A DNA stretch of 64,000 bases, from NCBI GenBank assembly GCA_017983695.1, contig JAGOAX010000010.1, positions 64,716 through 128,715 of the forward strand, in the 5' to 3' direction. Of the stretch, positions 2,134-25,050 are shown piece by piece. The notes beneath the pieces are model-generated. The model had not been told where the DNA came from. It worked only from the letters and a program-made list of their open reading frames with translations, and did not search any database. The position numbers were made by a program, and so were the translations under genes. Each line of letters opens with the position of its first letter. The stretch's first letter is position 1. This DNA comes from Ferruginibacter sp. (GTDB lineage: Bacteria; Bacteroidota; Bacteroidia; Chitinophagales; Chitinophagaceae).

Positions 2134-3251
2134 TTGGTGCCGGCATTGTTGGCCTTGCCAGTGCAAGAGCTCTTGCACAAAAGGGTTTTAGTGTAAAAGT
2201 ATTCGACCGCCATCCGCAGGCGATGGGTGCATCGATACGGAATTTTGGAATGGTATGGCCCATTGGCCAGCCATCCGGCACTATGTACAACCGTGCCATG
2301 CGCAGCAGAACAATCTGGAAGACCATTGCTAAGGAAGCCAACATCTGGCACGAAGAAACCGGCAGTCTTCACTTAGCATACAATGCAACAGAGTGGCAGG
2401 TATTACAAGAGCTGGAAAATATTTTTAAACAGGAAAAAAGAAATGTTACGCTTTTAGATAAAAATAAAATTGTAACCCTGTATGAACATGTTAACGCTGA
2501 TAATTTAATCGGCGGGTTATACAGTGCTGATGAAATGCTCATAGACCCCAGAGAAGCCATTGCAGCATTGCCTGAATACCTGGAAGAAAAATATGCTGTA
2601 GAATTTTACTGGAACAATTGTGCAAGTTATATTGCTGACCAAACAGTGTATGTTGGTAAAGAAGAATATGAAGCTGATATAATTTTTGTGTGTAGTGGTG
2701 CCGATTTTGAAACACTTTATCCTGAAGAATTTTCAAAACTACCCATAACAAAATGCAAATTACAAATGCTGCGTACCGTTCCCATGCCGGAACGCTATCG
2801 TATTAAAACTGCAATTTGCGGCGGCTTATCTTTATTGCATTACAGCAGTTTTAAAGCTGCGCCTTCGCTACCGATACTGCAAAAAAAGATGGCGGAAGAA
2901 ATGAAGCCGTATCTGGATTTGGGCATACATGTAATGGCTGCACAAAATGGCAAAGGAGAAATTACCATTGGCGATTCGCATGAATACGGATTGTACCTTG
3001 ACCCTTTTGACAGGGCATCCACCAATAAGCTAATTCTGGAGTATTTAAAAAGTTTTTTAAATATCAACAATAATTCCATTGCCGAGACCTGGAATGGTAT
3101 TTATCCCAAGCTAACCAACGGCGATACCGAAATTTTCTTTTCGCCTGACCATGGCGTATATATTTTGAATGGTGTTGGTGGTGCCGGCATGACCTTATCT
3201 TTTGGCCTTGCAGAAGAAGTGGTAGACCAGGTGGTGATGGTGACTGCGTAA
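2109..3251 (+). CDS. TIGR03364-type FAD-dependent oxidoreductase (DAO family, phosphonate-associated)
   Basis: GAGIVG Rossmann motif, GASIRNFGMVWP, GEITIGDSHEY, GVGGAGMTLSFGLAE. Confidence 0.85.
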   Translation: MQQKSAIVIGAGIVGLASARALAQKGFSVKVFDRHPQAMGASIRNFGMVWPIGQPSGTMYNRAMRSRTIWKTIAKEANIWHEETGSLHLAYNATEWQVLQELENIFKQEKRNVTLLDKNKIVTLYEHVNADNLIGGLYSADEMLIDPREAIAALPEYLEEKYAVEFYWNNCASYIADQTVYVGKEEYEADIIFVCSGADFETLYPEEFSKLPITKCKLQMLRTVPMPERYRIKTAICGGLSLLHYSSFKAAPSLPILQKKMAEEMKPYLDLGIHVMAAQNGKGEITIGDSHEYGLYLDPFDRASTNKLILEYLKSFLNINNNSIAETWNGIYPKLTNGDTEIFFSPDHGVYILNGVGGAGMTLSFGLAEEVVDQVVMVTA

Positions 3252-3364
3252 AAATTATTTATACTCTTCCATAACCGGTTAAATACATCAATTACTGCAC
3301 ACCCGGATATAATCATTGCCTTTGCACTTTAAAAATTTTATAGGCAGGGCAATAATGTACCGTG

Positions 3365-3442
3365 GTAACAATTTGGTAACATTAAGGAAACAATTCATTA
3401 ATGCTGCGATAACATTGCAGTAATCTCAACAGCCTCTCTTTG
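3365..3442 (+). promoter_or_regulatory. Putative Pho-box array (6 x 11-bp period) plus degenerate -7 element
   Basis: gtaaca 3365, gtaaca 3376, gaaaca 3387, ttaatg 3398, ataaca 3409, gtaatc 3420; TTTG at 3439 (19 nt after last unit start). Confidence 0.75.
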
Positions 3443-3446
3443 CAGC

Positions 3447-6239
3447 ATGAAAATTACGAACATGAGAAGCTACATCTTTATACTTACGTTTATTAGTTTA
3501 TCGTTTACAGCTCTTGCACAAAAAGGAAAGATAGAAGGAAAAATTACTGACTCAAAAACCGGTAACCCGATAGCTGGTATTTCAGTATTTGTTAAAGAAA
3601 CAGGAAAAGGTATTGCAACAGATCTGGAAGGCCGTTTTTCTTTTACGGTGGAAACGGGAAAGAAATATACTATTACCCTAAGCTCTACTAATTACGAAGC
3701 TAAAGAAATTACTGAGGTAGAAACCGGTGCCGATGGTATTGCACACCTTGATGTTACCTTAATACAAAAAGCTAAAACCGGCGAAGAAGTTATTGTAAAG
3801 AGCAGCACTGCAAAGAAAGAATCGGTAAGTGCCTTAATAGCATTTCAAAAAAACACCAATACAGTAGCTTCAGTTATTTCCGCCGAAGCTATCAGAAGAA
3901 GTCCTGACAGAAACACAGGTGAAGTGTTGAAGCGTTTACCAGGTACCAGCATTCAGGAAGGTAAGTTTTTGGTGGTAAGAGGTTTGGCCGACAGGTACAA
4001 CCAGGCGATGTTAAATGGTATTTTATTAACCAGTACTGAGCCAGACCGCAAAACTTTTTCTTTTGATATTATACCCAGTAATATGGTAGATAATATTGTA
4101 GTAAATAAAGCTTTTGTACCAGAACTTCCCGGGGAGTGGGCTGGTGGTTTAATACAGGTAAATACAAAAGATATTCCTACTAAAAATTTTTTCAATATTC
4201 AATTAAGCAGTGGTTTTAATACACAAACTATTGGTAAAGATTTTTACGAAGATAAAGGTGGCAAAACAGATTGGCTGGGTATAGATGACGGTACCAGAAA
4301 TTTACCTGCTGCATATACTACAAAAAGTGGTTTTGATACAGCAAGTTTTGCAAGTAAAACAGCTATGGGTAAGTCGATGCGTAATGCATGGGCACCCACA
4401 AAAATTGCAGCTCCTTTTAATACTGCTTTTGAATTGAATGGTGGATTTAAAGGAAAAGTATTTGGAAAAACACTGGGGGGCATTTTTGGTGTTACTTACC
4501 GCAAAAACAACAGCATTCAGGATATCGTAAACAGGCATAATAATTTTGAAAACGGAAGAGAGTTTAAGAATACTGACATTGATTTTAATGACGAACGCTA
4601 TTTACAAAGCACTGCAGTAAGTGCAATAGCCAGTTTATCGATGCAGCTGAACAATCTCAATAAAATTTCTTTAAAAAGTATTATAAGCACCAATACAGCT
4701 AACAGTACCATTTTAAGAAATGGTTTAGATGATACCCGTAACGAAGACATTATGGCTTATGAATATAGTTTTAAGCAAAATACTTTTTTTACTACACAAC
4801 TTACCGGCCAGCACAGCTTAACCAAGAGTTTAAAACTCAATTGGAATGGTGCTTTTACTATTTTAGATGGTTATTCTCCAGATCAAAGAAGGTTACAGTA
4901 TTCCAGAACTACCGGAACCGCAGATCCTTACAGAGCTATTGTATCCAATAACTTATCGCAGGCAAGTGGCAGCAGAATATATCAGATTTTAAACGATTAT
5001 ATCTACACCACCGGTGGTGATTTAACCTATACTTTAAAAAACAAGCAGACTATTAAAGGTGGTTACATGTTCCAGGTAAGAGACAGGTTGTTTGATGCAA
5101 AACTGTTTGCCAATTATTTGCCGGTTGATAATGATGCATTGAAACTATTGACACCTGATAAAATATTTGCACCCGAAAATTTTGGAAACGGCACCGATAA
5201 CAAGATAGCATTTGATGCCATCAAAGGAAGTACTTTCCGCTATTTGGCCAACACCATTTTAAATGCAGGCTACCTGCAAATGGATAACGAATTGTTTGAT
5301 AAACTGCGTTTGGTATGGGGTGTAAGAGTAGAACATTTTGACCAGTTGGTAGGTAGTGTAAAAAAATGGGATCCCCGTCACTCTTACTCAAAAGTAACTG
5401 ACTTTTTACCCGGCTTAAATGCTACCTACAAAATAAATCCAAAAACGAATCTCCGTTTGTCTGCTTCGCAAACAGTAATAAGGCCGGAGTTGAGAGAGCT
5501 TAGTGCACTTAACCTGTACGATTTTGAATTGAATGCTTCGGTTAATGGTAATCCAAACTTAAAACGCACCAAGATTACCAATTTAGATTTACGTTACGAA
5601 ATTTATAACCGCCCCGGAGAAGTATTTAGTGCGGGTGTATTTTACAAATATTTTAAAGATCCTATTGAGCAATTATTTAATGAAGGTATTGGTGGTGCAA
5701 GTACATTTAATTTTCAAAATGCTGAAAAAGCATATTCTGCAGGTATTGAATTAGAAGTAAGAAAAAAACTGGATTTTATTGCTGAGAAGATGGAAAACTT
5801 TACGCTGCAATCAAATATTGCTGTAATAAAAAGTAAGGTAACAGATGCGAAATTTAATTTAGACAGAAGCTTGCAAGGACAATCTAACTACCTGCTAAAT
5901 CTGGGGCTTTTATATGATGTGCCAAAACACGGTATAAACGCCACGGTATTATTTAATTTAATTGGCGAAAGAATATTTTTAGTAGGCGATAAAGCAGCCG
6001 GTGCATCATCTCCGGATGTGTACGAAGCACCACGCCCTTTATTGGATTTTCAATTAGCTAAAAAAGTAGCTAAAGGTAAGGCCGAAATAAAATTGAATGT
6101 ATCCGACATCATAAACAGGGTACAATATTTTTATCAAAACGCCAACAGCTCCAACGCTTTTCAAAAAAATACCGATGCCTACCGTTTTACCAGGAGGTTT
6201 GGTACAGCATTTAACGTAAGTATTAATTACTCTTTATAA
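3447..6239 (+). CDS. TonB-dependent receptor with N-terminal carboxypeptidase-regulatory-like domain (start may be 3462)
   Basis: Signal peptide, plug motifs (VVRGLADRYN, FSFDIIP, GEWAGGLI), barrel motifs (NPNLKRTKITNLDLRYE), C-terminal INYSL. Confidence 0.92.
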   Translation: MKITNMRSYIFILTFISLSFTALAQKGKIEGKITDSKTGNPIAGISVFVKETGKGIATDLEGRFSFTVETGKKYTITLSSTNYEAKEITEVETGADGIAHLDVTLIQKAKTGEEVIVKSSTAKKESVSALIAFQKNTNTVASVISAEAIRRSPDRNTGEVLKRLPGTSIQEGKFLVVRGLADRYNQAMLNGILLTSTEPDRKTFSFDIIPSNMVDNIVVNKAFVPELPGEWAGGLIQVNTKDIPTKNFFNIQLSSGFNTQTIGKDFYEDKGGKTDWLGIDDGTRNLPAAYTTKSGFDTASFASKTAMGKSMRNAWAPTKIAAPFNTAFELNGGFKGKVFGKTLGGIFGVTYRKNNSIQDIVNRHNNFENGREFKNTDIDFNDERYLQSTAVSAIASLSMQLNNLNKISLKSIISTNTANSTILRNGLDDTRNEDIMAYEYSFKQNTFFTTQLTGQHSLTKSLKLNWNGAFTILDGYSPDQRRLQYSRTTGTADPYRAIVSNNLSQASGSRIYQILNDYIYTTGGDLTYTLKNKQTIKGGYMFQVRDRLFDAKLFANYLPVDNDALKLLTPDKIFAPENFGNGTDNKIAFDAIKGSTFRYLANTILNAGYLQMDNELFDKLRLVWGVRVEHFDQLVGSVKKWDPRHSYSKVTDFLPGLNATYKINPKTNLRLSASQTVIRPELRELSALNLYDFELNASVNGNPNLKRTKITNLDLRYEIYNRPGEVFSAGVFYKYFKDPIEQLFNEGIGGASTFNFQNAEKAYSAGIELEVRKKLDFIAEKMENFTLQSNIAVIKSKVTDAKFNLDRSLQGQSNYLLNLGLLYDVPKHGINATVLFNLIGERIFLVGDKAAGASSPDVYEAPRPLLDFQLAKKVAKGKAEIKLNVSDIINRVQYFYQNANSSNAFQKNTDAYRFTRRFGTAFNVSINYSL

Positions 6240-6269
6240 TTTTTAAAATTTTAAAACATAAAAAACAAG

Positions 6270-7709
6270 ATGAAAAAGTACATTTTAATTCTATCAGCAA
6301 TTGTTGCACTAAGCAATACCGCTTGTAGAAAGATTGAAACAGACGGACAAATACAAGTGGTTACCATTAACACCGGCGGTGGCGGTGGTACAACAGGTCA
6401 AACTATTACAGTAGAAGGACGTATTACTTCGGATACCACCTTTAAAAAAGCCAATACCTACGTCTTAAAAGGTTTAGTGTATATAGCCAATAATAAAACA
6501 TTAACAATTGAACCAGGTACAACCATTAAAGGTTCATTCAGTGGCAGCGATGTTGCTGCATTAATTGTAACCCGTGGTGCAAAAATTGTAGCTAATGGTA
6601 CTGCAACAGAGCCTATTATTTTTACTTCTGCAAGCCCTAACCCACAAAGTGGCGATTGGGGTGGTATTGTAATTTGTGGTAAAGCGCCTATCAATACCAG
6701 TTTTAATGGTACTGCAGGTTTGTTTGAAGTAGAAGGTGGTGTTAATAATGCCAGTGGTGATGGTTTAGCAGGTAGCGGCGATGCAGTTGTACCTACAGCT
6801 ATTGCTAACGATAGTTCTGGCGTTTTACGTTATGTAAGAATAGAGTATGCAGGTTATGCATTTCAACCTGATAAAGAAATTAACAGTTTAACTATGGCTG
6901 CAGTAGGCAGCAAAACTGTAATTGAAAATGTACAAACTTATTTAGCAAAAGATGATGCTTTTGAATGGTTTGGTGGCACTGTAAATTGCAAATACCTGGT
7001 AGCTTATAAAACACAGGATGATGATTTTGATACTGATAACGGATATAGCGGTAAAGTACAGTTTGGATTAGCTATCAGGGATTCAGTAATTGCAGATGCC
7101 TCAAGATCGGAAGCATTTGAAAGTGATAATAATGCAGGGGGTACTACTGTTACACCAAAAACATCTGTTGTATTTAGTAATATGACGGCGATAGGCCCAA
7201 GGGCTACTGCCACAAGCGTAGGAAGTTCATTGTACAGGGCTGGTGCACATATCAGAAGAAACTCTGAAATGTCTTTATTAAATTCAGTAATTATTGGATG
7301 GCCCTTAGGAATTGAGGTAGATGGTACTACGGGTACAGCAACCGGCGCAAATGTGGGTACAGGTTTAGTATTGGCTAACAATTTTTTAGGGGGTAACACA
7401 GATAGCATTAAATATTCTGCCCCTGCAGGTTCTACTTATACCACTGCAGACTTAGTAACTTATTTTAAAGCAACTGCACAGGCAAACACTATATTAAATG
7501 GTACATTACCTAATACATTGTTTATACAGCCTTTTAACTACGCTACTCCAGATCCAACTCCCTTTGGCAATGCAACTGCAATAGTAACAAAAGCAAGTTT
7601 CACTAATGCAAAAGTTGCTGATGCCTTTTTTACTCCAACTAATTTTATAGGCGCTATTGCACCAAACGGTGCATTATCAAGCTGGTGGAAAGGCTGGACA
7701 AGATTTTAA
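6270..7709 (+). CDS. Lipoprotein with predicted right-handed beta-helix, partner of the TonB receptor
   Basis: Lipobox NTA-C; LTIEPGT, GDWGG, SGVLRYVRIEYAG, EINSLT, DDAFEWFGG, DDDFDTDNG, FESDN motifs. Confidence 0.8.
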   Translation: MKKYILILSAIVALSNTACRKIETDGQIQVVTINTGGGGGTTGQTITVEGRITSDTTFKKANTYVLKGLVYIANNKTLTIEPGTTIKGSFSGSDVAALIVTRGAKIVANGTATEPIIFTSASPNPQSGDWGGIVICGKAPINTSFNGTAGLFEVEGGVNNASGDGLAGSGDAVVPTAIANDSSGVLRYVRIEYAGYAFQPDKEINSLTMAAVGSKTVIENVQTYLAKDDAFEWFGGTVNCKYLVAYKTQDDDFDTDNGYSGKVQFGLAIRDSVIADASRSEAFESDNNAGGTTVTPKTSVVFSNMTAIGPRATATSVGSSLYRAGAHIRRNSEMSLLNSVIIGWPLGIEVDGTTGTATGANVGTGLVLANNFLGGNTDSIKYSAPAGSTYTTADLVTYFKATAQANTILNGTLPNTLFIQPFNYATPDPTPFGNATAIVTKASFTNAKVADAFFTPTNFIGAIAPNGALSSWWKGWTRF

Positions 7710-7738
7710 ATTATAAATAAAGAAGCCAAAAAATACCT

Positions 7739-7768
7739 AATCCCTTCAACTTATTGAAGGGATTTTTT
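7739..7768 (+). terminator. Rho-independent terminator of TonB receptor-lipoprotein operon
   Basis: aatcccttcaa-ctta-ttgaagggatt perfect 11-bp stem then T run. Confidence 0.85.
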
Positions 7769-7769
7769 A

Positions 7770-7826
7770 ATAACATTAATATCATTTTTGAATAATTATT
7801 TGGTAATACTACAAGGGCATCTTGCA
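7770..7826 (+). promoter_or_regulatory. Putative Pho-box array plus degenerate -7 element with no downstream CDS
   Basis: ataaca 7770, atcatt 7781, ataatt 7792, gtaata 7803; CTTGCA at 7821 (18 nt offset). Confidence 0.45.
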
Positions 7827-7829
7827 CCC

Positions 7830-7927
7830 GTAAACATAAAGCAGTTTAGTTTAATTTCTTAAGCAATAAGCAAATAGTCACATGCTTGTAAACCACCCGT
7901 TAGTCTTATCTGGGTGGTTCATTTTTT
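7830..7927 (+). ncRNA. Candidate phosphate-regulated small RNA (about 100 nt; 5' end approximate)
   Basis: Lies between the putative promoter and a GC-rich hairpin aaccacccg...tgggtggtt (7891-7919) followed by T6; no credible ORF. Confidence 0.3.
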
Positions 7928-7938
7928 ATCATCCGGTA

Positions 7939-7966
7939 TGTTAAATTAAGGTTACCAAATTGTTAC
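7939..7966 (-). promoter_or_regulatory. Reverse-oriented Pho-box-like array (3 x 11 bp)
   Basis: tgttaa 7939, ggttac 7950, tgttac 7961 (reverse complements ttaaca, gtaacc, gtaaca). Confidence 0.55.
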
Positions 7967-8058
7967 TATGCACATTTAAATCACATTCTTTTGCACAGCC
8001 TTGATTTAAAAAATTATGAAATTATATTCACATTCTAAAAAAACAAAAACTATAGTTT

Positions 8059-8550
8059 ATGAAATGGGTTAGCGTAAACAATGGTACTTCAAACGAAAAC
8101 TTTGAATTGTGGGAAGCCGATAAAAAATTAGCGGTTATCTCATTTAGCAATACCACACGTATTGCAAGAATTGTAAGCAACTTAGGCAAGCGGCTTTTCT
8201 TTTTTGAGAAAAAAGGATTGCTCACGCCAAAAGCTGTATTTAAAAATGAGTATGGTATAAAAATGGGTAAGCTGGAGCTGGAAAAACCCGGTGCCCAAAA
8301 TGGCTACCTGGAAATTGAAGAAAAAAAATACCGTTATGTTTTTAATGCCAATAATAATGGCGAACTAAATGTATATAACGAAACGATGAGTGAAACACTT
8401 ATTACCTGTAATTTCCCTGCTCCATCAAATTCGGTATCTAAAAATTCGTCTTTTTTAGATACTAAATTATCGAGCCTGTTACTTATACTTTGCTGGTATT
8501 CTTTTCAGCCTAAAAACACACATACCCAGGTAATGGAAGCCATTGCCTGA
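8059..8550 (+). CDS. Hypothetical protein
   Basis: 163-aa ORF with A-rich initiation region, TTTG element at 7990 upstream and terminator downstream. Confidence 0.75.
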   Translation: MKWVSVNNGTSNENFELWEADKKLAVISFSNTTRIARIVSNLGKRLFFFEKKGLLTPKAVFKNEYGIKMGKLELEKPGAQNGYLEIEEKKYRYVFNANNNGELNVYNETMSETLITCNFPAPSNSVSKNSSFLDTKLSSLLLILCWYSFQPKNTHTQVMEAIA

Positions 8551-8627: not shown

Positions 8628-9032
8628 ATGATGATGAAATATATTCTTTTGCTTCTATTGCTCCCGGTGCTGTTTTCCTGCACAAACCCCACCGGCATTA
8701 AAGAAATAATTACAGGTGCCGATAGTGTAGCCATCAATTATTTTAAAGGCGATGGCACTGCGGATACTGTAGTTAATATGGCAATGCTGAAAGATAAAAG
8801 CCAGATCAATAAACTGGCCGGTTATGTTGAAGCCGCCAAAGCAGAGCAATACAAATGCGGTTACGATGGCTCCATTCATATATTTAAAAGAGATGTAGTT
8901 TTGCAGGACATCAATTTTAGTTTTAACGATGTGCAATGCATGCATTTTTCATTTCTATTAAAAAATCAATTATACAGCACAAAACTTTCTGCCGAAGCGC
9001 TGCAGTTTATTAAATCAGTTAATAAAAAATAA
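8628..9032 (+). CDS. Hypothetical lipoprotein
   Basis: Signal peptide II with LFS-C lipobox. Confidence 0.75.
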   Translation: MMMKYILLLLLLPVLFSCTNPTGIKEIITGADSVAINYFKGDGTADTVVNMAMLKDKSQINKLAGYVEAAKAEQYKCGYDGSIHIFKRDVVLQDINFSFNDVQCMHFSFLLKNQLYSTKLSAEALQFIKSVNKK

Positions 9033-20826: not shown

Positions 20827-20860
20827 AGCTTTACCTGTACAAGTTATAGGTAAAGCTTTT
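20827..20860. terminator. Bidirectional terminator
   Basis: agctttacctgta...tataggtaaagct stem between convergent genes. Confidence 0.75.
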
Positions 20861-21908
20861 AATCTTTCTTTTTAGGTAATGTAAAACCAAAGGTGGTACC
20901 TACATCAATTTTACTGCGTACATGAATGGTCTGACCATGGGCTTCCACAATATGTTTGCAAATAGAAAGACCTAAACCACTACCCCCAACTTTCCTGCTT
21001 CTTGCTAAATCGGTACGATAAAACCTTTCAAATATCCTGGGTAAATGTTCTTCTGCAATACCGGAGCCATCATCACTGATCTCTATTAATATTCTACGAC
21101 CATCTATCCGGTAAAAGCTACTTTCTATTGTGCCATTTTGCTTACCATACTTGATCGCATTGTCTACAAGATTTATAAAAACCTGCCGTATTTTTTCTTT
21201 ATCGGCATAAACAGTTAATGGTTGTTCGCAGCCTTTTTTAATAATGCATTTAATTTCTTTTTCTTCTGCTTTAATAGCTAAGGTTTCATACACTTCCTTC
21301 AGCAGGTCCTGTATCACAAAATTTTGCTGGTACAGCAATTGTTCGCCACTTTCTAATTTTGATATTTCATCAAGGTCATCTACTAAATTCACCAGTCGGT
21401 CAACATTACGGGAAGTGCTGTTTAAAAATTTTTTATTTACATCAGGATTTTCCAAAGCGCCATTTAATAAAGTATCTACATAACCCTGTATGGCAAAAAT
21501 CGGTGTCTTTAATTCATGACTCAGATTTTGCAAAAATTCTTTGCGGTAAGTTTCGTTTTGCTGCAGTAATTCTATTTCTTCTTTACGCTGTATGGCCCAT
21601 TTTTCCACGTCTTCCCTTACTTCATCAATGCCTTTCTGGGGTAAAATATTTTTATAGTAAAACTCTTCTCTTTTGCTGGCCTTGGTTTGATAAATGAGTT
21701 TGTAAATGAGTTTTATTTTGCGGTAAATAAAAGTTTGCAGTGCGTAAGATATTAATGCATAGCTGCCCAAAAACATGGCTACAAATGAAACCAACGGTAT
21801 CCACCAAACCGGTTTAAAAATAAAAACCACAATTGCCACCGGCACCGATAAACCCAATGCCGTTAATGCAGATAATTGTTGTGGTGAAAGATTTTTTTGT
21901 GAAGGCAT
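20859..21908 (-). CDS. phoR: Sensor histidine kinase, PhoR-like
   Basis: Two N-terminal TMs, SHELKTP H-box, NLVDNAIKYG, DDGSGI, GGSGLGL; located in a phosphorus cluster. Confidence 0.8.
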   Translation of the reverse strand: MPSQKNLSPQQLSALTALGLSVPVAIVVFIFKPVWWIPLVSFVAMFLGSYALISYALQTFIYRKIKLIYKLIYQTKASKREEFYYKNILPQKGIDEVREDVEKWAIQRKEEIELLQQNETYRKEFLQNLSHELKTPIFAIQGYVDTLLNGALENPDVNKKFLNSTSRNVDRLVNLVDDLDEISKLESGEQLLYQQNFVIQDLLKEVYETLAIKAEEKEIKCIIKKGCEQPLTVYADKEKIRQVFINLVDNAIKYGKQNGTIESSFYRIDGRRILIEISDDGSGIAEEHLPRIFERFYRTDLARSRKVGGSGLGLSICKHIVEAHGQTIHVRSKIDVGTTFGFTLPKKKD

Positions 21909-21987
21909 ACACCTATCCCCTAAAGGAAAAATTTATTTTAGCGAAGATATTAAGATAACATCAATAACTCCCTTTCGGGGATGCGGT

Positions 21988-22662
21988 CTATATTTCAAAC
22001 TTATACCCTACGCCTTTTACAGTGCTGATGCAATCAAGGTCTAATTTTTGGCGAATTTTGCGGATGTGTACATCAATGGTACGGTCGCCAACTATAACTT
22101 CAGTGCCCCAAATAGTGTTCAATATTTCGTTGCGTAAAAAAACTTTGCCGGGTTTGCCAGCCAGTAAAGCCAGTAATTCAAATTCTTTTCTGGCCAGTAC
22201 AATATCGTTTCCTTTAAAATTGATCATATATTTCTCCCTGTCAATTTCAAGATCACCCACTTTTAACACTTTGGGTCCATCATTACTAAACCTTCTGAAC
22301 AAGGCATTTACCTTACTCACTAAAACTTTAGGGCTTATAGGTTTTGTCAGGTAATCATCGGCCCCACTTTCCAACCCTTTCACTTCGGTGCCTTCATCAC
22401 TCAATGCAGTTAAAAAAATAATAAGGGTATTTTTAAAAGCGGGCAGGCTGCGTAAAGTATTACAAACTTCCATCCCGGTTTTACCCGGCATCATAATATC
22501 CAGTATTATCAAATCCGGAAGGGTTCGTTTTGCTTTTTCGATGGCTTCGTTGCCGTTCTTTGCAGTAATCACTTCAAAACCTTCTCCCTGCAAATTGTAT
22601 TGGATGATCTCCAGGATATCGGGCTCATCATCGGCAATTAATATTTTTTTAACAGTACTCAT
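21988..22662 (-). CDS. phoP: OmpR-family response regulator, PhoP/PhoB-like
   Basis: DDEPDI, LDIMMP, GADDYLTKP, DRTIDVHIRKIR, VKGVGYKF; start moved to ATG 22662 because the -7 box overlaps 22680. Confidence 0.82.
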   Translation of the reverse strand: MSTVKKILIADDEPDILEIIQYNLQGEGFEVITAKNGNEAIEKAKRTLPDLIILDIMMPGKTGMEVCNTLRSLPAFKNTLIIFLTALSDEGTEVKGLESGADDYLTKPISPKVLVSKVNALFRRFSNDGPKVLKVGDLEIDREKYMINFKGNDIVLARKEFELLALLAGKPGKVFLRNEILNTIWGTEVIVGDRTIDVHIRKIRQKLDLDCISTVKGVGYKFEI

Positions 22663-22675
22663 AAGTAAAACGTTG

Positions 22676-22685
22676 TGCAAAAGTA
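22676..22685 (-). promoter_or_regulatory. Housekeeping -7 element of phoPR
   Basis: TACTTTTGCA on the minus strand, a perfect TAnnTTTG. Confidence 0.7.
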
Positions 22686-22727
22686 GTCTTAATCAATATT
22701 CAATAAATCAGTTTAAAGGCTTTGCTG

Positions 22728-22744
22728 TATTATCAAATTGTTAA
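22728..22744 (-). promoter_or_regulatory. Possible two-unit Pho box upstream of phoP (autoregulation)
   Basis: Reverse units ttaaca (22739) and ataata (22728), 11 bp apart; only two units. Confidence 0.3.
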
Positions 22745-22821
22745 GCCAAACAGGCATAGTTTATGTTGATAATTAAGCCTGTAGGCAACCCTAATCAAAA
22801 TTTCAGCATCTTTGCAGCTGT

Positions 22822-25050
22822 ATGACTATGACAAAGAATATTTTTTTAATCCTTTTACTACTTATTTGCCGGGTTACCAGCTTCGGAATACCTATCGATA
22901 CTATTAAAGTACCTTTTCAACGACAGATCTTTCATGATAAGATTAATGGAGAGCAAAAGCTACTGGATAAAGCCGATGGTAAAACTGACGGCATTATAAA
23001 AGTATCGTATGATAACGATATAAACCTGGCTGTTACCGATGCGATAATAAGGGGCATTAATGAACTGGAGGACTCCGTTGAAGTGAATAAAAAACTGGCA
23101 GGGCACCGGGAAAAAGTAATGTACCTAAATTATATTGAACGGGTGGTAAGGGAATTTAGAAACGGATGGAGGCAACAGCTGCTTGATCCATTATATGCCC
23201 CGATACTGATAGATAATTTTAAAAAGATTATGACTGCTGATATTGACAGCATGAGTATGGTGCCATTTATTGAGGCTGCCCCCTATGAAGTAGGCAGAAT
23301 TAATATGGAGATATTTTCGGCCAACAGCGGATATAAGCAAAGCAAAAACCTGGTGTATTTAAAATTTTGTACCCTCTATCCTGATAAAGTTTTATCAACT
23401 CTGGCACCATACGCTAAAGAAACATTTGCCGACAGCCTGGTTATCCTGGCCTGTAAAAATGATCCTTCGCAGGCCTATAAATTTGCACAGGATGTAGCAT
23501 CACCTGTTGGCAGGGTAATTCATAACAGTGCCGACCCCTTGGTAAAAACCATTGCCACACTGAGTAAGCTGCCGGGGGCTCTTTTATATTTCCCCTTTTT
23601 AGATGATATAGTAAGCGGTAAAAAACAAATTGATAGCCTGCATAAAATTATTGGCAGCGGCGAAAAAGGTTATGACAGTGTTGCGTATTATAAACTACTG
23701 GTGCAAACAGAAATTGAATACAGTAAAAGAATGAGCAGGGGCGATACCGCAACAGCATTATTTGGTGCCAACGGCCTTAGGGATTTACTTAAAAGAAAAG
23801 CACTGCAACATTTTATTACACCAATAAATGACCTGCACGAAAAACCCGAAGCTGTGCGGATGAAAGCAATAGACTCTTTAAGCCCTGCGGATATTTATTA
23901 CATGATTGTAACCAATGAAGATGTTATTTATACCAGCAGTTACAAGCATAGTTTTAACCGCATGTTGCAAAGGCTGGGCAAAACCCCTGCTACCGATTCT
24001 TTATTATTGGCCGTAAACTTCGATTACTTTAAAAAGTTTATTAAAATGGCAGCCAATTTTAATAAACTGGATACCTTTTTAAATTTAATGCCGCCATCAA
24101 GTTCCGAAACTTTAATGAAAGCTTTTGTAGGCAGACTGGAAACCAACAAAACCCTTGAAGATGCCGTTGATGTGGCAGATTCGTACAGCAGCATTAATAA
24201 CAAAAAACTGCTGGCCAATATTTTAAAATATGTAGATGATAATGAGCTACGCTGTGTAAAGAACAACAACAAACGTGGTAAGATAATTTACAGCCTTTTA
24301 AAAACAATTTTTCTTTCGGCCGATAGTACCAATAAAATTGATTTGAGTGCTGCGATAGGCATACCGCCGGTTTATACTATTGAAAACAAGGCGCTGATGG
24401 GAGATGGTGACAGCAACCGTATTGTGCAACAGGTTTTCTTTTATGGTGATGAGGATGGGCAAAAATTTTTTCCGCAATATGTCAATTCTTTTTCTGCTAA
24501 AGAATGGAAGGTCAACAGCAGCTTTAAAGAATGGGTGGAAATAAAATCGATAAAAGGCCCAAAGGTTTGGATATATGTAAACCGTCCTTTAAATAACGAC
24601 AGGAATTTAGATGACACCGCACAGATACACCTGAATCAATACCTTACAAAAAATAATCTTAAACCATCAATTGTAACACACCGTGGGCATAGTTACTGGC
24701 TGCCCCGTACCATCGAACGTATGACAGGCGATGCAAAAATTATTGTATTAGGTAGTTGTGGCGGTTACAAAAATTTAAACCAGTTAATTGAAATAAATCC
24801 TGATGCCCATATTATTTCCACCAAGCAAATTGGTACCGGCAACATTAACCAGATAATTACAAATAAATTAAACCAGGTATTGCTTGCCGGCAAAACAGTT
24901 GTATGGAAAACCATGTGGGATGATCTTTCTTTATTTTTTGCCAAACAACCAAAAGATATAAAAGAAGCCTGGGAAGATTATATACCACCGTATAAAAACC
25001 TGGGTGCTATTTTTATTAAAGCTTATAATAAAAAATCGGAGGGAGAATAA
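22822..25050 (+). CDS. Large exported hypothetical protein with possible C-terminal His-Cys dyad
   Basis: 742-aa ORF with signal peptide; THRGHS and VLGSCGG near C-terminus. Confidence 0.75.
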   Translation: MTMTKNIFLILLLLICRVTSFGIPIDTIKVPFQRQIFHDKINGEQKLLDKADGKTDGIIKVSYDNDINLAVTDAIIRGINELEDSVEVNKKLAGHREKVMYLNYIERVVREFRNGWRQQLLDPLYAPILIDNFKKIMTADIDSMSMVPFIEAAPYEVGRINMEIFSANSGYKQSKNLVYLKFCTLYPDKVLSTLAPYAKETFADSLVILACKNDPSQAYKFAQDVASPVGRVIHNSADPLVKTIATLSKLPGALLYFPFLDDIVSGKKQIDSLHKIIGSGEKGYDSVAYYKLLVQTEIEYSKRMSRGDTATALFGANGLRDLLKRKALQHFITPINDLHEKPEAVRMKAIDSLSPADIYYMIVTNEDVIYTSSYKHSFNRMLQRLGKTPATDSLLLAVNFDYFKKFIKMAANFNKLDTFLNLMPPSSSETLMKAFVGRLETNKTLEDAVDVADSYSSINNKKLLANILKYVDDNELRCVKNNNKRGKIIYSLLKTIFLSADSTNKIDLSAAIGIPPVYTIENKALMGDGDSNRIVQQVFFYGDEDGQKFFPQYVNSFSAKEWKVNSSFKEWVEIKSIKGPKVWIYVNRPLNNDRNLDDTAQIHLNQYLTKNNLKPSIVTHRGHSYWLPRTIERMTGDAKIIVLGSCGGYKNLNQLIEINPDAHIISTKQIGTGNINQIITNKLNQVLLAGKTVVWKTMWDDLSLFFAKQPKDIKEAWEDYIPPYKNLGAIFIKAYNKKSEGE

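Follow-up and report, generated by a model that had tools for sequence, protein, structure and literature searches.

Organization of the locus

The window analyzed here, a 64,000-nucleotide stretch of a Ferruginibacter sp. genome, carries a pair of genes that probably form an outer-membrane uptake system controlled by phosphate starvation. Both genes lie on the plus strand, co-oriented and in the same reading frame: the first (3447..6239, 930 aa) encodes a TonB-dependent receptor of non-SusC type, and the second (6270..7709, 479 aa) a lipoprotein with a predicted surface location. They are separated by an AT-rich spacer of 30 nt in which no hairpin was found, and an intrinsic terminator on the same strand (7739..7770), consisting of an 11-bp stem (7739-7764), a 4-nt loop and a T-run, closes the two-gene unit. 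Ahead of the receptor gene, also on the plus strand, stand six 11-nt units (3364..3429) with (G/T/A)TAA(C/T)A cores, which are putative PhoB/PhoP-type sites overlapping the -33 position of the promoter. A first-pass annotation, made from the sequence alone, had described a two-gene operon with six upstream units and a downstream terminator, and the open reading frames, the 11-nt register and the 11-bp stem all bear this description out, with the start codon probably at 3462. An Rfam scan of positions 3200-8100 returned no credible RNA family; a single sub-threshold match, to a fly long non-coding RNA model, is attributable to chance.

The repeat array and its promoter

In exact 11-nt register, positions 3364-3429 read GGTAACAATTT, GGTAACATTAA, GGAAACAATTC, ATTAATGCTGC, GATAACATTGC and AGTAATCTCAA. 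Four of the cores are good (GTAACA, GTAACA, GAAACA and ATAACA) and two are degenerate (TTAATG and GTAATC). Scans of the window and of the genome agreed with the earlier claim that this is the longest array of its type in the 64-kb window. An equal four-unit score is reached at only seven sites in the 4.48-Mb genome, five of them within 32 kb on the same contig, in the island to which the pair belongs. A looser threshold gave 44 matches genome-wide versus 22 in shuffled sequence, mostly noise, and only the top sites were used. The five island arrays precede the receptor gene, a phosphatase-like metalloenzyme gene (9115), a PAP2 operon (10924), a metallophosphoesterase-glycosyltransferase pair on the minus strand (17017-15072) and the gene for a 441-aa outer-membrane protein just outside the window; a slightly weaker array precedes the gene for a choice-of-anchor I protein (17318).

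Downstream of the array lies TCTCTTTG (3435..3442, plus strand), a weakened form of the Bacteroidota -7 element, whose consensus, as known from Bacteroides, is TAnnTTTG; here the TTTG runs to 3442. The last unit of the array lies upstream of this TTTG at an offset of exactly 13 nt, which puts the array where the -33 element would otherwise be. PhoB-type activators elsewhere act from boxes that replace the upstream promoter element. About 60 related loci have like units ahead of the receptor gene, mostly at the same 13-nt offset, and at least three consecutive good units were found in 36 of 64 receptor-upstream regions of relatives, versus 4 of 1222 random 200-nt windows drawn from the same loci.

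The Bacillus subtilis PhoP unit, TT(A/T/C)ACA, is the same hexamer as the array unit. The array unit also matches the core of the PhoP motif of Riemerella anatipestifer, itself a member of the Bacteroidota, namely TTTAACA, obtained by DNA affinity purification sequencing (PMC9603813). The Ferruginibacter array has what defines a Pho box, namely direct hexamer repeats of 11-bp period over the upstream promoter element, ahead of putative phosphate-starvation genes. It shares the 11-bp direct-repeat period with the boxes of Escherichia coli PhoB, B. subtilis PhoP and R. anatipestifer PhoP, and a near-identical hexamer core with the latter two. It differs from the classical boxes in having six units rather than two to four and in being coupled to a Bacteroidota promoter with a TAnnTTTG -7 element; binding of a regulator is predicted from the sequence. 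Taken together, these features suggest real, functional-looking binding sites of PhoB/PhoP type.

The promoter also bears on the translation start of the receptor, which is more likely ATG 3462 (MRSYIFILTF...) than ATG 3447, because the TTTG ends (3442) only 4 nt before ATG 3447. This correction follows from the alignment of relatives, and the start at 3462 yields a normal signal peptide (MRSYIFILTFISLSFTALA, cleaved before Q). ATG 3447 probably precedes the transcript start.

A further array of three units (GTAACA/GTAACC/TTAACA) lies on the minus strand at 7930-7966, past the terminator; no TTTG stands at the usual 13-nt distance from it.

The receptor and the lipoprotein

The receptor contains PF13715 (a CarboxypepD_reg-like N-terminal domain), the PF07715 plug, the PF00593 barrel and PF14905. 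With the SusC/RagA model TIGR04056 it reaches 40.5 bits, where the cut-off is 368.25, in a match confined to the N-terminal domain. Its best NCBIfam match is TIGR01782 (TonB-Xanth-Caul), at 213 bits, under the cut-off of 310. The lipoprotein matched nothing in local copies of the Pfam, NCBIfam and PDB sequence libraries, including the SusD families PF07980, PF12771 and PF14322. The pair is thus not a SusC/SusD pair, as the first-pass annotation had already stated: the receptor fails the SusC model and its partner is without a SusD match. No carbohydrate-active enzyme (CAZyme) domain was found in either protein with Pfam or NCBIfam.

The lipoprotein begins with a signal peptide and a lipobox (LSNTAC, Cys19), followed by an acidic stretch (CRKIETDG), a Gly-rich tether and a beta-helix; the signal peptide and the cysteine are also present in relatives. 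An acidic stretch after the cysteine, like RKIETDG, resembles the export signal of Bacteroidota surface lipoproteins, which suggests that the protein is surface-exposed. A precomputed PF28492.1 label is attached to the window lipoprotein and to all 120 homologues listed. This family is newer than the Pfam copy used here and was not mentioned in the literature searched.

The AlphaFold2 model of the lipoprotein, computed from an alignment of 26 sequences, has a mean predicted local distance difference test score (pLDDT) of 89.9 and a predicted template modeling score (pTM) of 0.89, and consists of stacked short strands; residues 1-39, comprising the signal peptide and the Gly-rich tether, are disordered. 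When this model was searched with Foldseek, essentially all PDB matches and nearly all matches in the viral BFVD collection were right-handed beta-helices, among them tailspikes, polysaccharide lyases of families 6 and 9 (PL6 and PL9), alginate epimerases, NosD and polygalacturonases. These matches are weak (best E-values of 8e-4 to 2e-3, template modeling (TM) scores of at most 0.40, and at most 0.33 for PL6 and PL9 entries), reflect the generic fold only and gave no functional assignment. Comparison with PL1, PL6 and PL9 lyases likewise yielded no sequence match to PDB chains, and a PDB profile search with the family alignment matched only the C-terminal domain of the type IX secretion system (T9SS) present in other rows. 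The structure prediction and the Foldseek search confirm the beta-helix of the earlier proposal: the model places the lipoprotein among right-handed, pectin-lyase-like beta-helices, and the fold class can be regarded as settled, without a solved relative.

Near-invariant acidic motifs

The three acidic motifs to which the first-pass annotation drew attention, DDAFEWFGG (228-236), QDDDFDTDNG (249-258) and FESDNN (283-288), are present and form the most conserved part of the family. They are consecutive copies of one pattern (KDDAFEWFGG, QDDDFDTDNG and RSEAFESDNN), which would correspond to successive rungs of the helix. Conservation was assessed over 240 copies of the domain, taken from 150 representatives with mutual identities of at most 50%. 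In this set, D228, D229, E232, D250, D254, E284, E203, N205, N304 and N338 are 96-99% conserved (97-99% for the first eight of these), and D251 and D286 reach 92-93%.

A polar site that varies so little would imply one fixed chemistry, either a bound cation together with a simple ligand, or catalysis, and would set the lipoprotein apart from SusD-like proteins, whose binding sites are variable. The earlier proposal of a metal-binding beta-helix therefore stands in part: the fold is supported by AlphaFold2 and Foldseek, and metal binding is suggested by the near-invariant Asp, Glu and Asn residues.

Pairing, spread and neighbors in related genomes

All 70 related loci that extend far enough carry a gene for a receptor homologue immediately ahead of the lipoprotein gene and in the same orientation. 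These loci span lipoprotein identities from 67% down to 40% and come from Chitinophagaceae, Sphingobacteriales, Chryseobacterium, Hymenobacter, Prevotella, Rikenellaceae and Tannerellaceae; homologues from Flavobacteriales and Bacteroidales are 40-48% identical to the window protein. The lipoprotein family is large, with 7427 matches in 90% clusters and 8630 representatives at 50%, and 197 of the 301 Bacteroidota genomes sampled have a member, in 113 of 143 genera. The Ferruginibacter genome holds a single copy.

Many relatives (P0121-P0270) are giants in which 2 to 14 beta-helix domains follow one another in tandem, and others carry a T9SS C-terminal sorting domain instead of a lipobox. The same beta-helix domain is thus used in a tethered as well as a secreted form. 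The T9SS domains on paralogues fit an extracellular role of the family.

Neighbors of the pair in relatives were searched with the proteins of the window's own island as queries. The most frequent were a PhoB-like regulator with its kinase (20 loci) and a DUF47 (PhoU-like) protein, often with PiT (19 loci), followed by homologues of the 441-aa outer-membrane protein (14 loci), PlcP (10 loci) and an Agt-like glycosyltransferase (9 loci). In one Bacteroidales metagenome-assembled genome (L062:2741-12162), the gene for a 331-aa protein without a Pfam match comes next after the pair, and then four genes of PstS, PstC/A and PstB type, all on the same strand; in another (L057:2772-8541), a PiT (PHO4) gene follows the pair. 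Positions of both pstC and a lipoprotein-family gene were listed for 65 genomes, and in 19 of them the two are at most 15 kb apart. No recurrent hydrolase was found beside the pair among the island genes tested and ten annotated downstream genes from a few loci, unlike the situation at PusCD loci.

The putative phosphate island and a genome without Pst

The island contains PlcP-Agt, PAP2 and phosphatase-like genes, PiT/DUF47, and genes for a PhoB-like regulator and a kinase. The PiT/DUF47 (PhoU-like) genes and that of the 441-aa outer-membrane protein lie just upstream of the window (C33:47730-51636). From their context, the metallophosphoesterase at 17017-15072 is putatively PlcP-like, and the 441-aa protein, which has no Pfam match, is a putative phosphate porin. 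The two regulatory genes, both on the minus strand and together spanning 20859..22680, stand in the same island, 13 kb downstream of the pair. They encode an OmpR/PhoB-type response regulator (21988-22680), which is the best match to PhoB (TIGR02154, 221.6 bits) in the genome and the candidate cognate regulator of the arrays, and a kinase with HisKA/HATPase Pfam domains (20859-21908). The region before the regulator gene (22670-22830) contains only a two-unit dimer (TTAACA/ATAATA) at a different offset, and autoregulation through the same box left no clear sign there.

Neither PstC nor PstB was found above cut-off in the Ferruginibacter genome, which is 99.6% complete, and PstC is absent from 12 of 15 sampled genomes of the same family. 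Phosphate import in this organism seems to rest on PiT and its DUF47 partner, encoded beside the 441-aa protein. Across the sampled Bacteroidota, the lipoprotein family occurs in 101 of 115 Pst-less genomes versus 96 of 186 Pst-bearing ones, and 14 of the 301 have neither. This inverse association (odds ratio 0.15, p = 4e-11, from raw counts without phylogenetic correction) comes largely from one family that has Pst and is without the lipoprotein, and p is 0.2 within the window's class, so that it is a lead and not a result.

Considered together, the conserved PhoB-type array, the content of the island and the published expression of homologues strongly indicate that the pair is controlled by starvation for inorganic phosphate (Pi). 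The same evidence upholds the earlier suggestion of an outer-membrane uptake pair for phosphorus starvation.

Relation to described systems

The pair belongs to a known and widespread type, represented by ElpS, BT4056 and the FI and FII proteins of Flavobacterium, which the first-pass annotation had not recognized. In F. johnsoniae, the TonB-dependent transporter (TBDT) Fjoh_0545 and the lipoprotein FII (Fjoh_0546), which has a pectin-lyase fold, are induced at low Pi and encoded in the phoBR cluster as Pus4, and FI (Fjoh_3856) with the TBDT Fjoh_3857 constitutes Pus3 (PMC8115612). Both pairs are induced by Pi depletion and repressed under nitrogen and iron limitation; FI makes up 18.7% of the exoproteome, FI and FII are among its major components, and these proteins are related to ElpS of Caulobacter (PMC8115612). 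Fjoh_0545 and the Ferruginibacter receptor share the Pfam set PF07715, PF13715 and PF14905, and Fjoh_0546, like the lipoprotein described here, has no classical Pfam domain, a fold of pectin-lyase type and a gene downstream of that of its TBDT. The pairs of both organisms also cluster with phoB/phoR, a porin (a putative one in Ferruginibacter) and lipid-remodeling genes. Homologues from Chryseobacterium (L040 and L047) are 47-48% identical and stand beside phoBR-like genes, as in F. johnsoniae, whereas in Ferruginibacter the pair comes after a phosphonate-catabolism operon and the regulator is 13 kb away. The lipoprotein is present in three copies in F. johnsoniae (FI, FII and FIII) and in one in Ferruginibacter.

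In Bacteroides thetaiotaomicron, BT4055 and BT4056 have been described as a putative TBDT-'lid' pair whose homologues are neighbors in 621 genera, and AlphaFold-Multimer places the BT4056 lipoprotein on the outer face of the receptor BT4055 (bioRxiv 10.1101/2023.03.17.533168). Like the Ferruginibacter pair, it combines a non-SusC TBDT with a lipoprotein of the pectin-lyase superfamily in a widely conserved neighborhood. Bacteroidales homologues are 41-45% identical to the Ferruginibacter lipoprotein; the 'lid' geometry is predicted for BT4055/BT4056 only.

A more distant counterpart is ElpS (CC0170) of Caulobacter crescentus, a surface lipoprotein produced under Pi starvation, whose gene lies beside that of the TonB-dependent receptor CC0171 (PMC2996285). 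The arrangement of a surface lipoprotein gene beside a TonB receptor gene is shared with Ferruginibacter. ElpS is 31-36% identical to the Flavobacterium forms over about half its length (PMC8115612). It is alphaproteobacterial and is released by a protease that depends on the type II secretion system, whereas export in Ferruginibacter would use the surface-lipoprotein route of Bacteroidota.

The SusCD/PusCD systems of Bacteroidota follow the same logic of a TBDT with a surface lipoprotein under low-phosphate control, and in F. johnsoniae PusCD1/2 import inositol-phosphate head groups (bioRxiv 10.64898/2026.09.03.749221). They differ in having a SusD-type tetratricopeptide-repeat lipoprotein, whereas the Ferruginibacter lipoprotein is a beta-helix, its receptor fails the SusC model and the pair has no phosphodiesterase dedicated to it. 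A genuine SusC/SusD pair, accompanied by genes with phosphoesterase domains, lies 10 kb upstream of the window. The preprint of September 2026 on the PusCD systems considers the function of Pus3 and Pus4 not yet predictable (bioRxiv 10.64898/2026.09.03.749221).

Proposed function and alternative explanations

The reading that best accommodates these observations is a PhoB/PhoP-activated operon that encodes a TonB transporter and its surface lipoprotein partner, of the ElpS/BT4056/FI-FII type; we give it a probability of about 0.72. Under phosphate shortage, the PhoB-like regulator of the island would bind the six (G/T)TAACA units that stand in for the -33 element and switch the promoter on. 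The lipoprotein would be exported to the surface, where its beta-helix would hang on the Gly-rich tether of about 25 residues. The ladder of Asp, Glu and Asn residues over the three repeats (DDxFExFGG, DDDFDTDNG and EAFESDNN) would most likely hold Ca2+ or another cation, and the cation-loaded ladder would bind one fixed phosphorus-bearing ligand. This ligand would be passed to the receptor and drawn into the periplasm with TonB energy, and phosphate would then reach the cytoplasm through PiT/DUF47; the genome is without Pst.

Several points weigh against this reading. The search ahead of the PhoB-like regulator gene found no array with the promoter offset. Family membership rests on the PF28492 label, the fold, the receptor architecture, the gene order and intermediate homologues, with Fjoh_0546, BT4056 and ElpS compared by description only. 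Metal binding is plausible from the near-invariant Asp, Glu and Asn residues, and it is from these same residues that binding of a ligand is read. The AlphaFold-Multimer model of BT4055-BT4056 contains few high-confidence contacts (bioRxiv 10.1101/2023.03.17.533168). The gene cc0171 is reported as constitutive (in Ferruginibacter, the receptor gene shares one promoter with that of its lipoprotein); furthermore, ElpS leaves the cell, and supernatant phosphatase activity rises when it is overproduced, which fits a role other than that of a lid (PMC2996285).

With regard to the ligand, inorganic, condensed or metal-bound phosphate appears at least as likely as an organic polymer. We lean towards the former because the recurrent neighbors of the pair are phosphate transporters and regulators, with no hydrolase among the limited set of genes and loci checked, and because the putative binding residues hardly vary over thousands of proteins. 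In its most specific form, this preference would make the pair a TonB-energized, high-affinity outer-membrane route for inorganic phosphate, whether free, pyro- or polyphosphate, or complexed with Ca or Fe, captured by the acidic, cation-loaded beta-helix; this form is offered tentatively, as a possibility. We know of no TonB-dependent uptake of inorganic phosphate described so far. If such a route were real, the pair would partly stand in for Pst in many Pst-less, PiT-only Bacteroidota.

It is doubtful that an anionic polymer of organic phosphorus, for example DNA, teichoic acid or phytate, is cleaved by the beta-helix as a lyase or hydrolase, or bound by it, and that the receptor imports the fragments. 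Ca2+-dependent polysaccharide lyases (PL6 and PL9), epimerases and tailspike depolymerases are indeed among the nearest folds, catalysis would be consistent with a polar site that hardly varies, the island also has phosphoesterases, and relatives are secreted as multi-copy T9SS proteins in the manner of many degradative enzymes. The structural resemblance is, however, that of weak matches to a generic fold (best E-values of 8e-4 to 2e-3, TM scores of at most 0.40), and the island genes tested and the few downstream genes annotated included no hydrolase that accompanies the pair. Invariance of the site over thousands of proteins also argues for one simple ligand. Moreover, purified ElpS, refolded and immunoprecipitated, had no phosphatase activity on p-nitrophenyl phosphate (PMC2996285). 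The first-pass annotation had proposed a polymeric or diester source (DNA, teichoic acid or polyphosphate) and a possible lyase; neither this substrate class nor the lyase activity gained direct support; the recurrent neighbors are inorganic-phosphate transporters and regulators, no hydrolase recurred among the island genes tested or the few loci annotated, and ElpS was inactive as a phosphatase (PMC2996285).

It is improbable that the lipoprotein is a released accessory factor that activates extracellular phosphatases or supplies them with metal, as proposed for ElpS, and that the receptor works independently of it. The cleavage of ElpS from the surface and the supernatant phosphatase activity that follows its overproduction, the prominence of FI and FII in the exoproteome, the small number of confident AlphaFold-Multimer contacts and an acidic ladder that could store Ca2+ would all suit such a role. 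An independent receptor is nevertheless hard to reconcile with a gene order in which it directly precedes the lipoprotein in all 70 loci, the 30-nt spacer and the shared promoter and terminator, an arrangement difficult to explain without physical or functional coupling, and with a neighborhood kept in 621 genera.

An ordinary TonB system for glycans or iron chelates, with upstream repeats unrelated to phosphate, is highly improbable: such cargoes are the usual ones of TonB receptors, the best NCBIfam match of this receptor is to the TonB-Xanth-Caul subfamily, which includes sugar importers, and beta-helices are typical of carbohydrate-active proteins, but in this genome arrays of this type stand before PlcP-glycosyltransferase, PAP2 and phosphatase-like genes and hardly any others, the relatives' neighbors are phoBR-like genes, PiT/DUF47, pstSCAB and homologues of the 441-aa protein, the F. 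johnsoniae homologues respond to Pi depletion only and are repressed under iron and nitrogen limitation, and no CAZyme domain occurs in the pair.

As an operon for a PhoB/PhoP-activated transporter with its surface partner, the Ferruginibacter genes would represent a type of phosphate-starvation pair that few others match in its spread across Bacteroidota and into some Proteobacteria, in a family whose lipoprotein is among the most abundant exported proteins of F. johnsoniae at low phosphate. Identification of the ligand would fill a gap in the understanding of phosphorus acquisition by soil, gut, freshwater and wastewater Bacteroidota. The interest lies in this family-level question and not in the Ferruginibacter copy, which represents no new kind of system; what it contributes is a clean, single-copy, Pst-less example, a promoter architecture found across the phylum and a list of near-invariant residues.

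Adjacent genes

In the Ferruginibacter genome, the phosphonate-catabolism operon directly precedes the pair. After the pair come two small genes without a family match, encoding a 163-aa protein (8059-8550) and a 134-aa lipoprotein (8628-9032). Homologues of the 134-aa lipoprotein and of the 163-aa protein recur beside the pair or beside a phosphatase-like gene in seven and five related loci, respectively.

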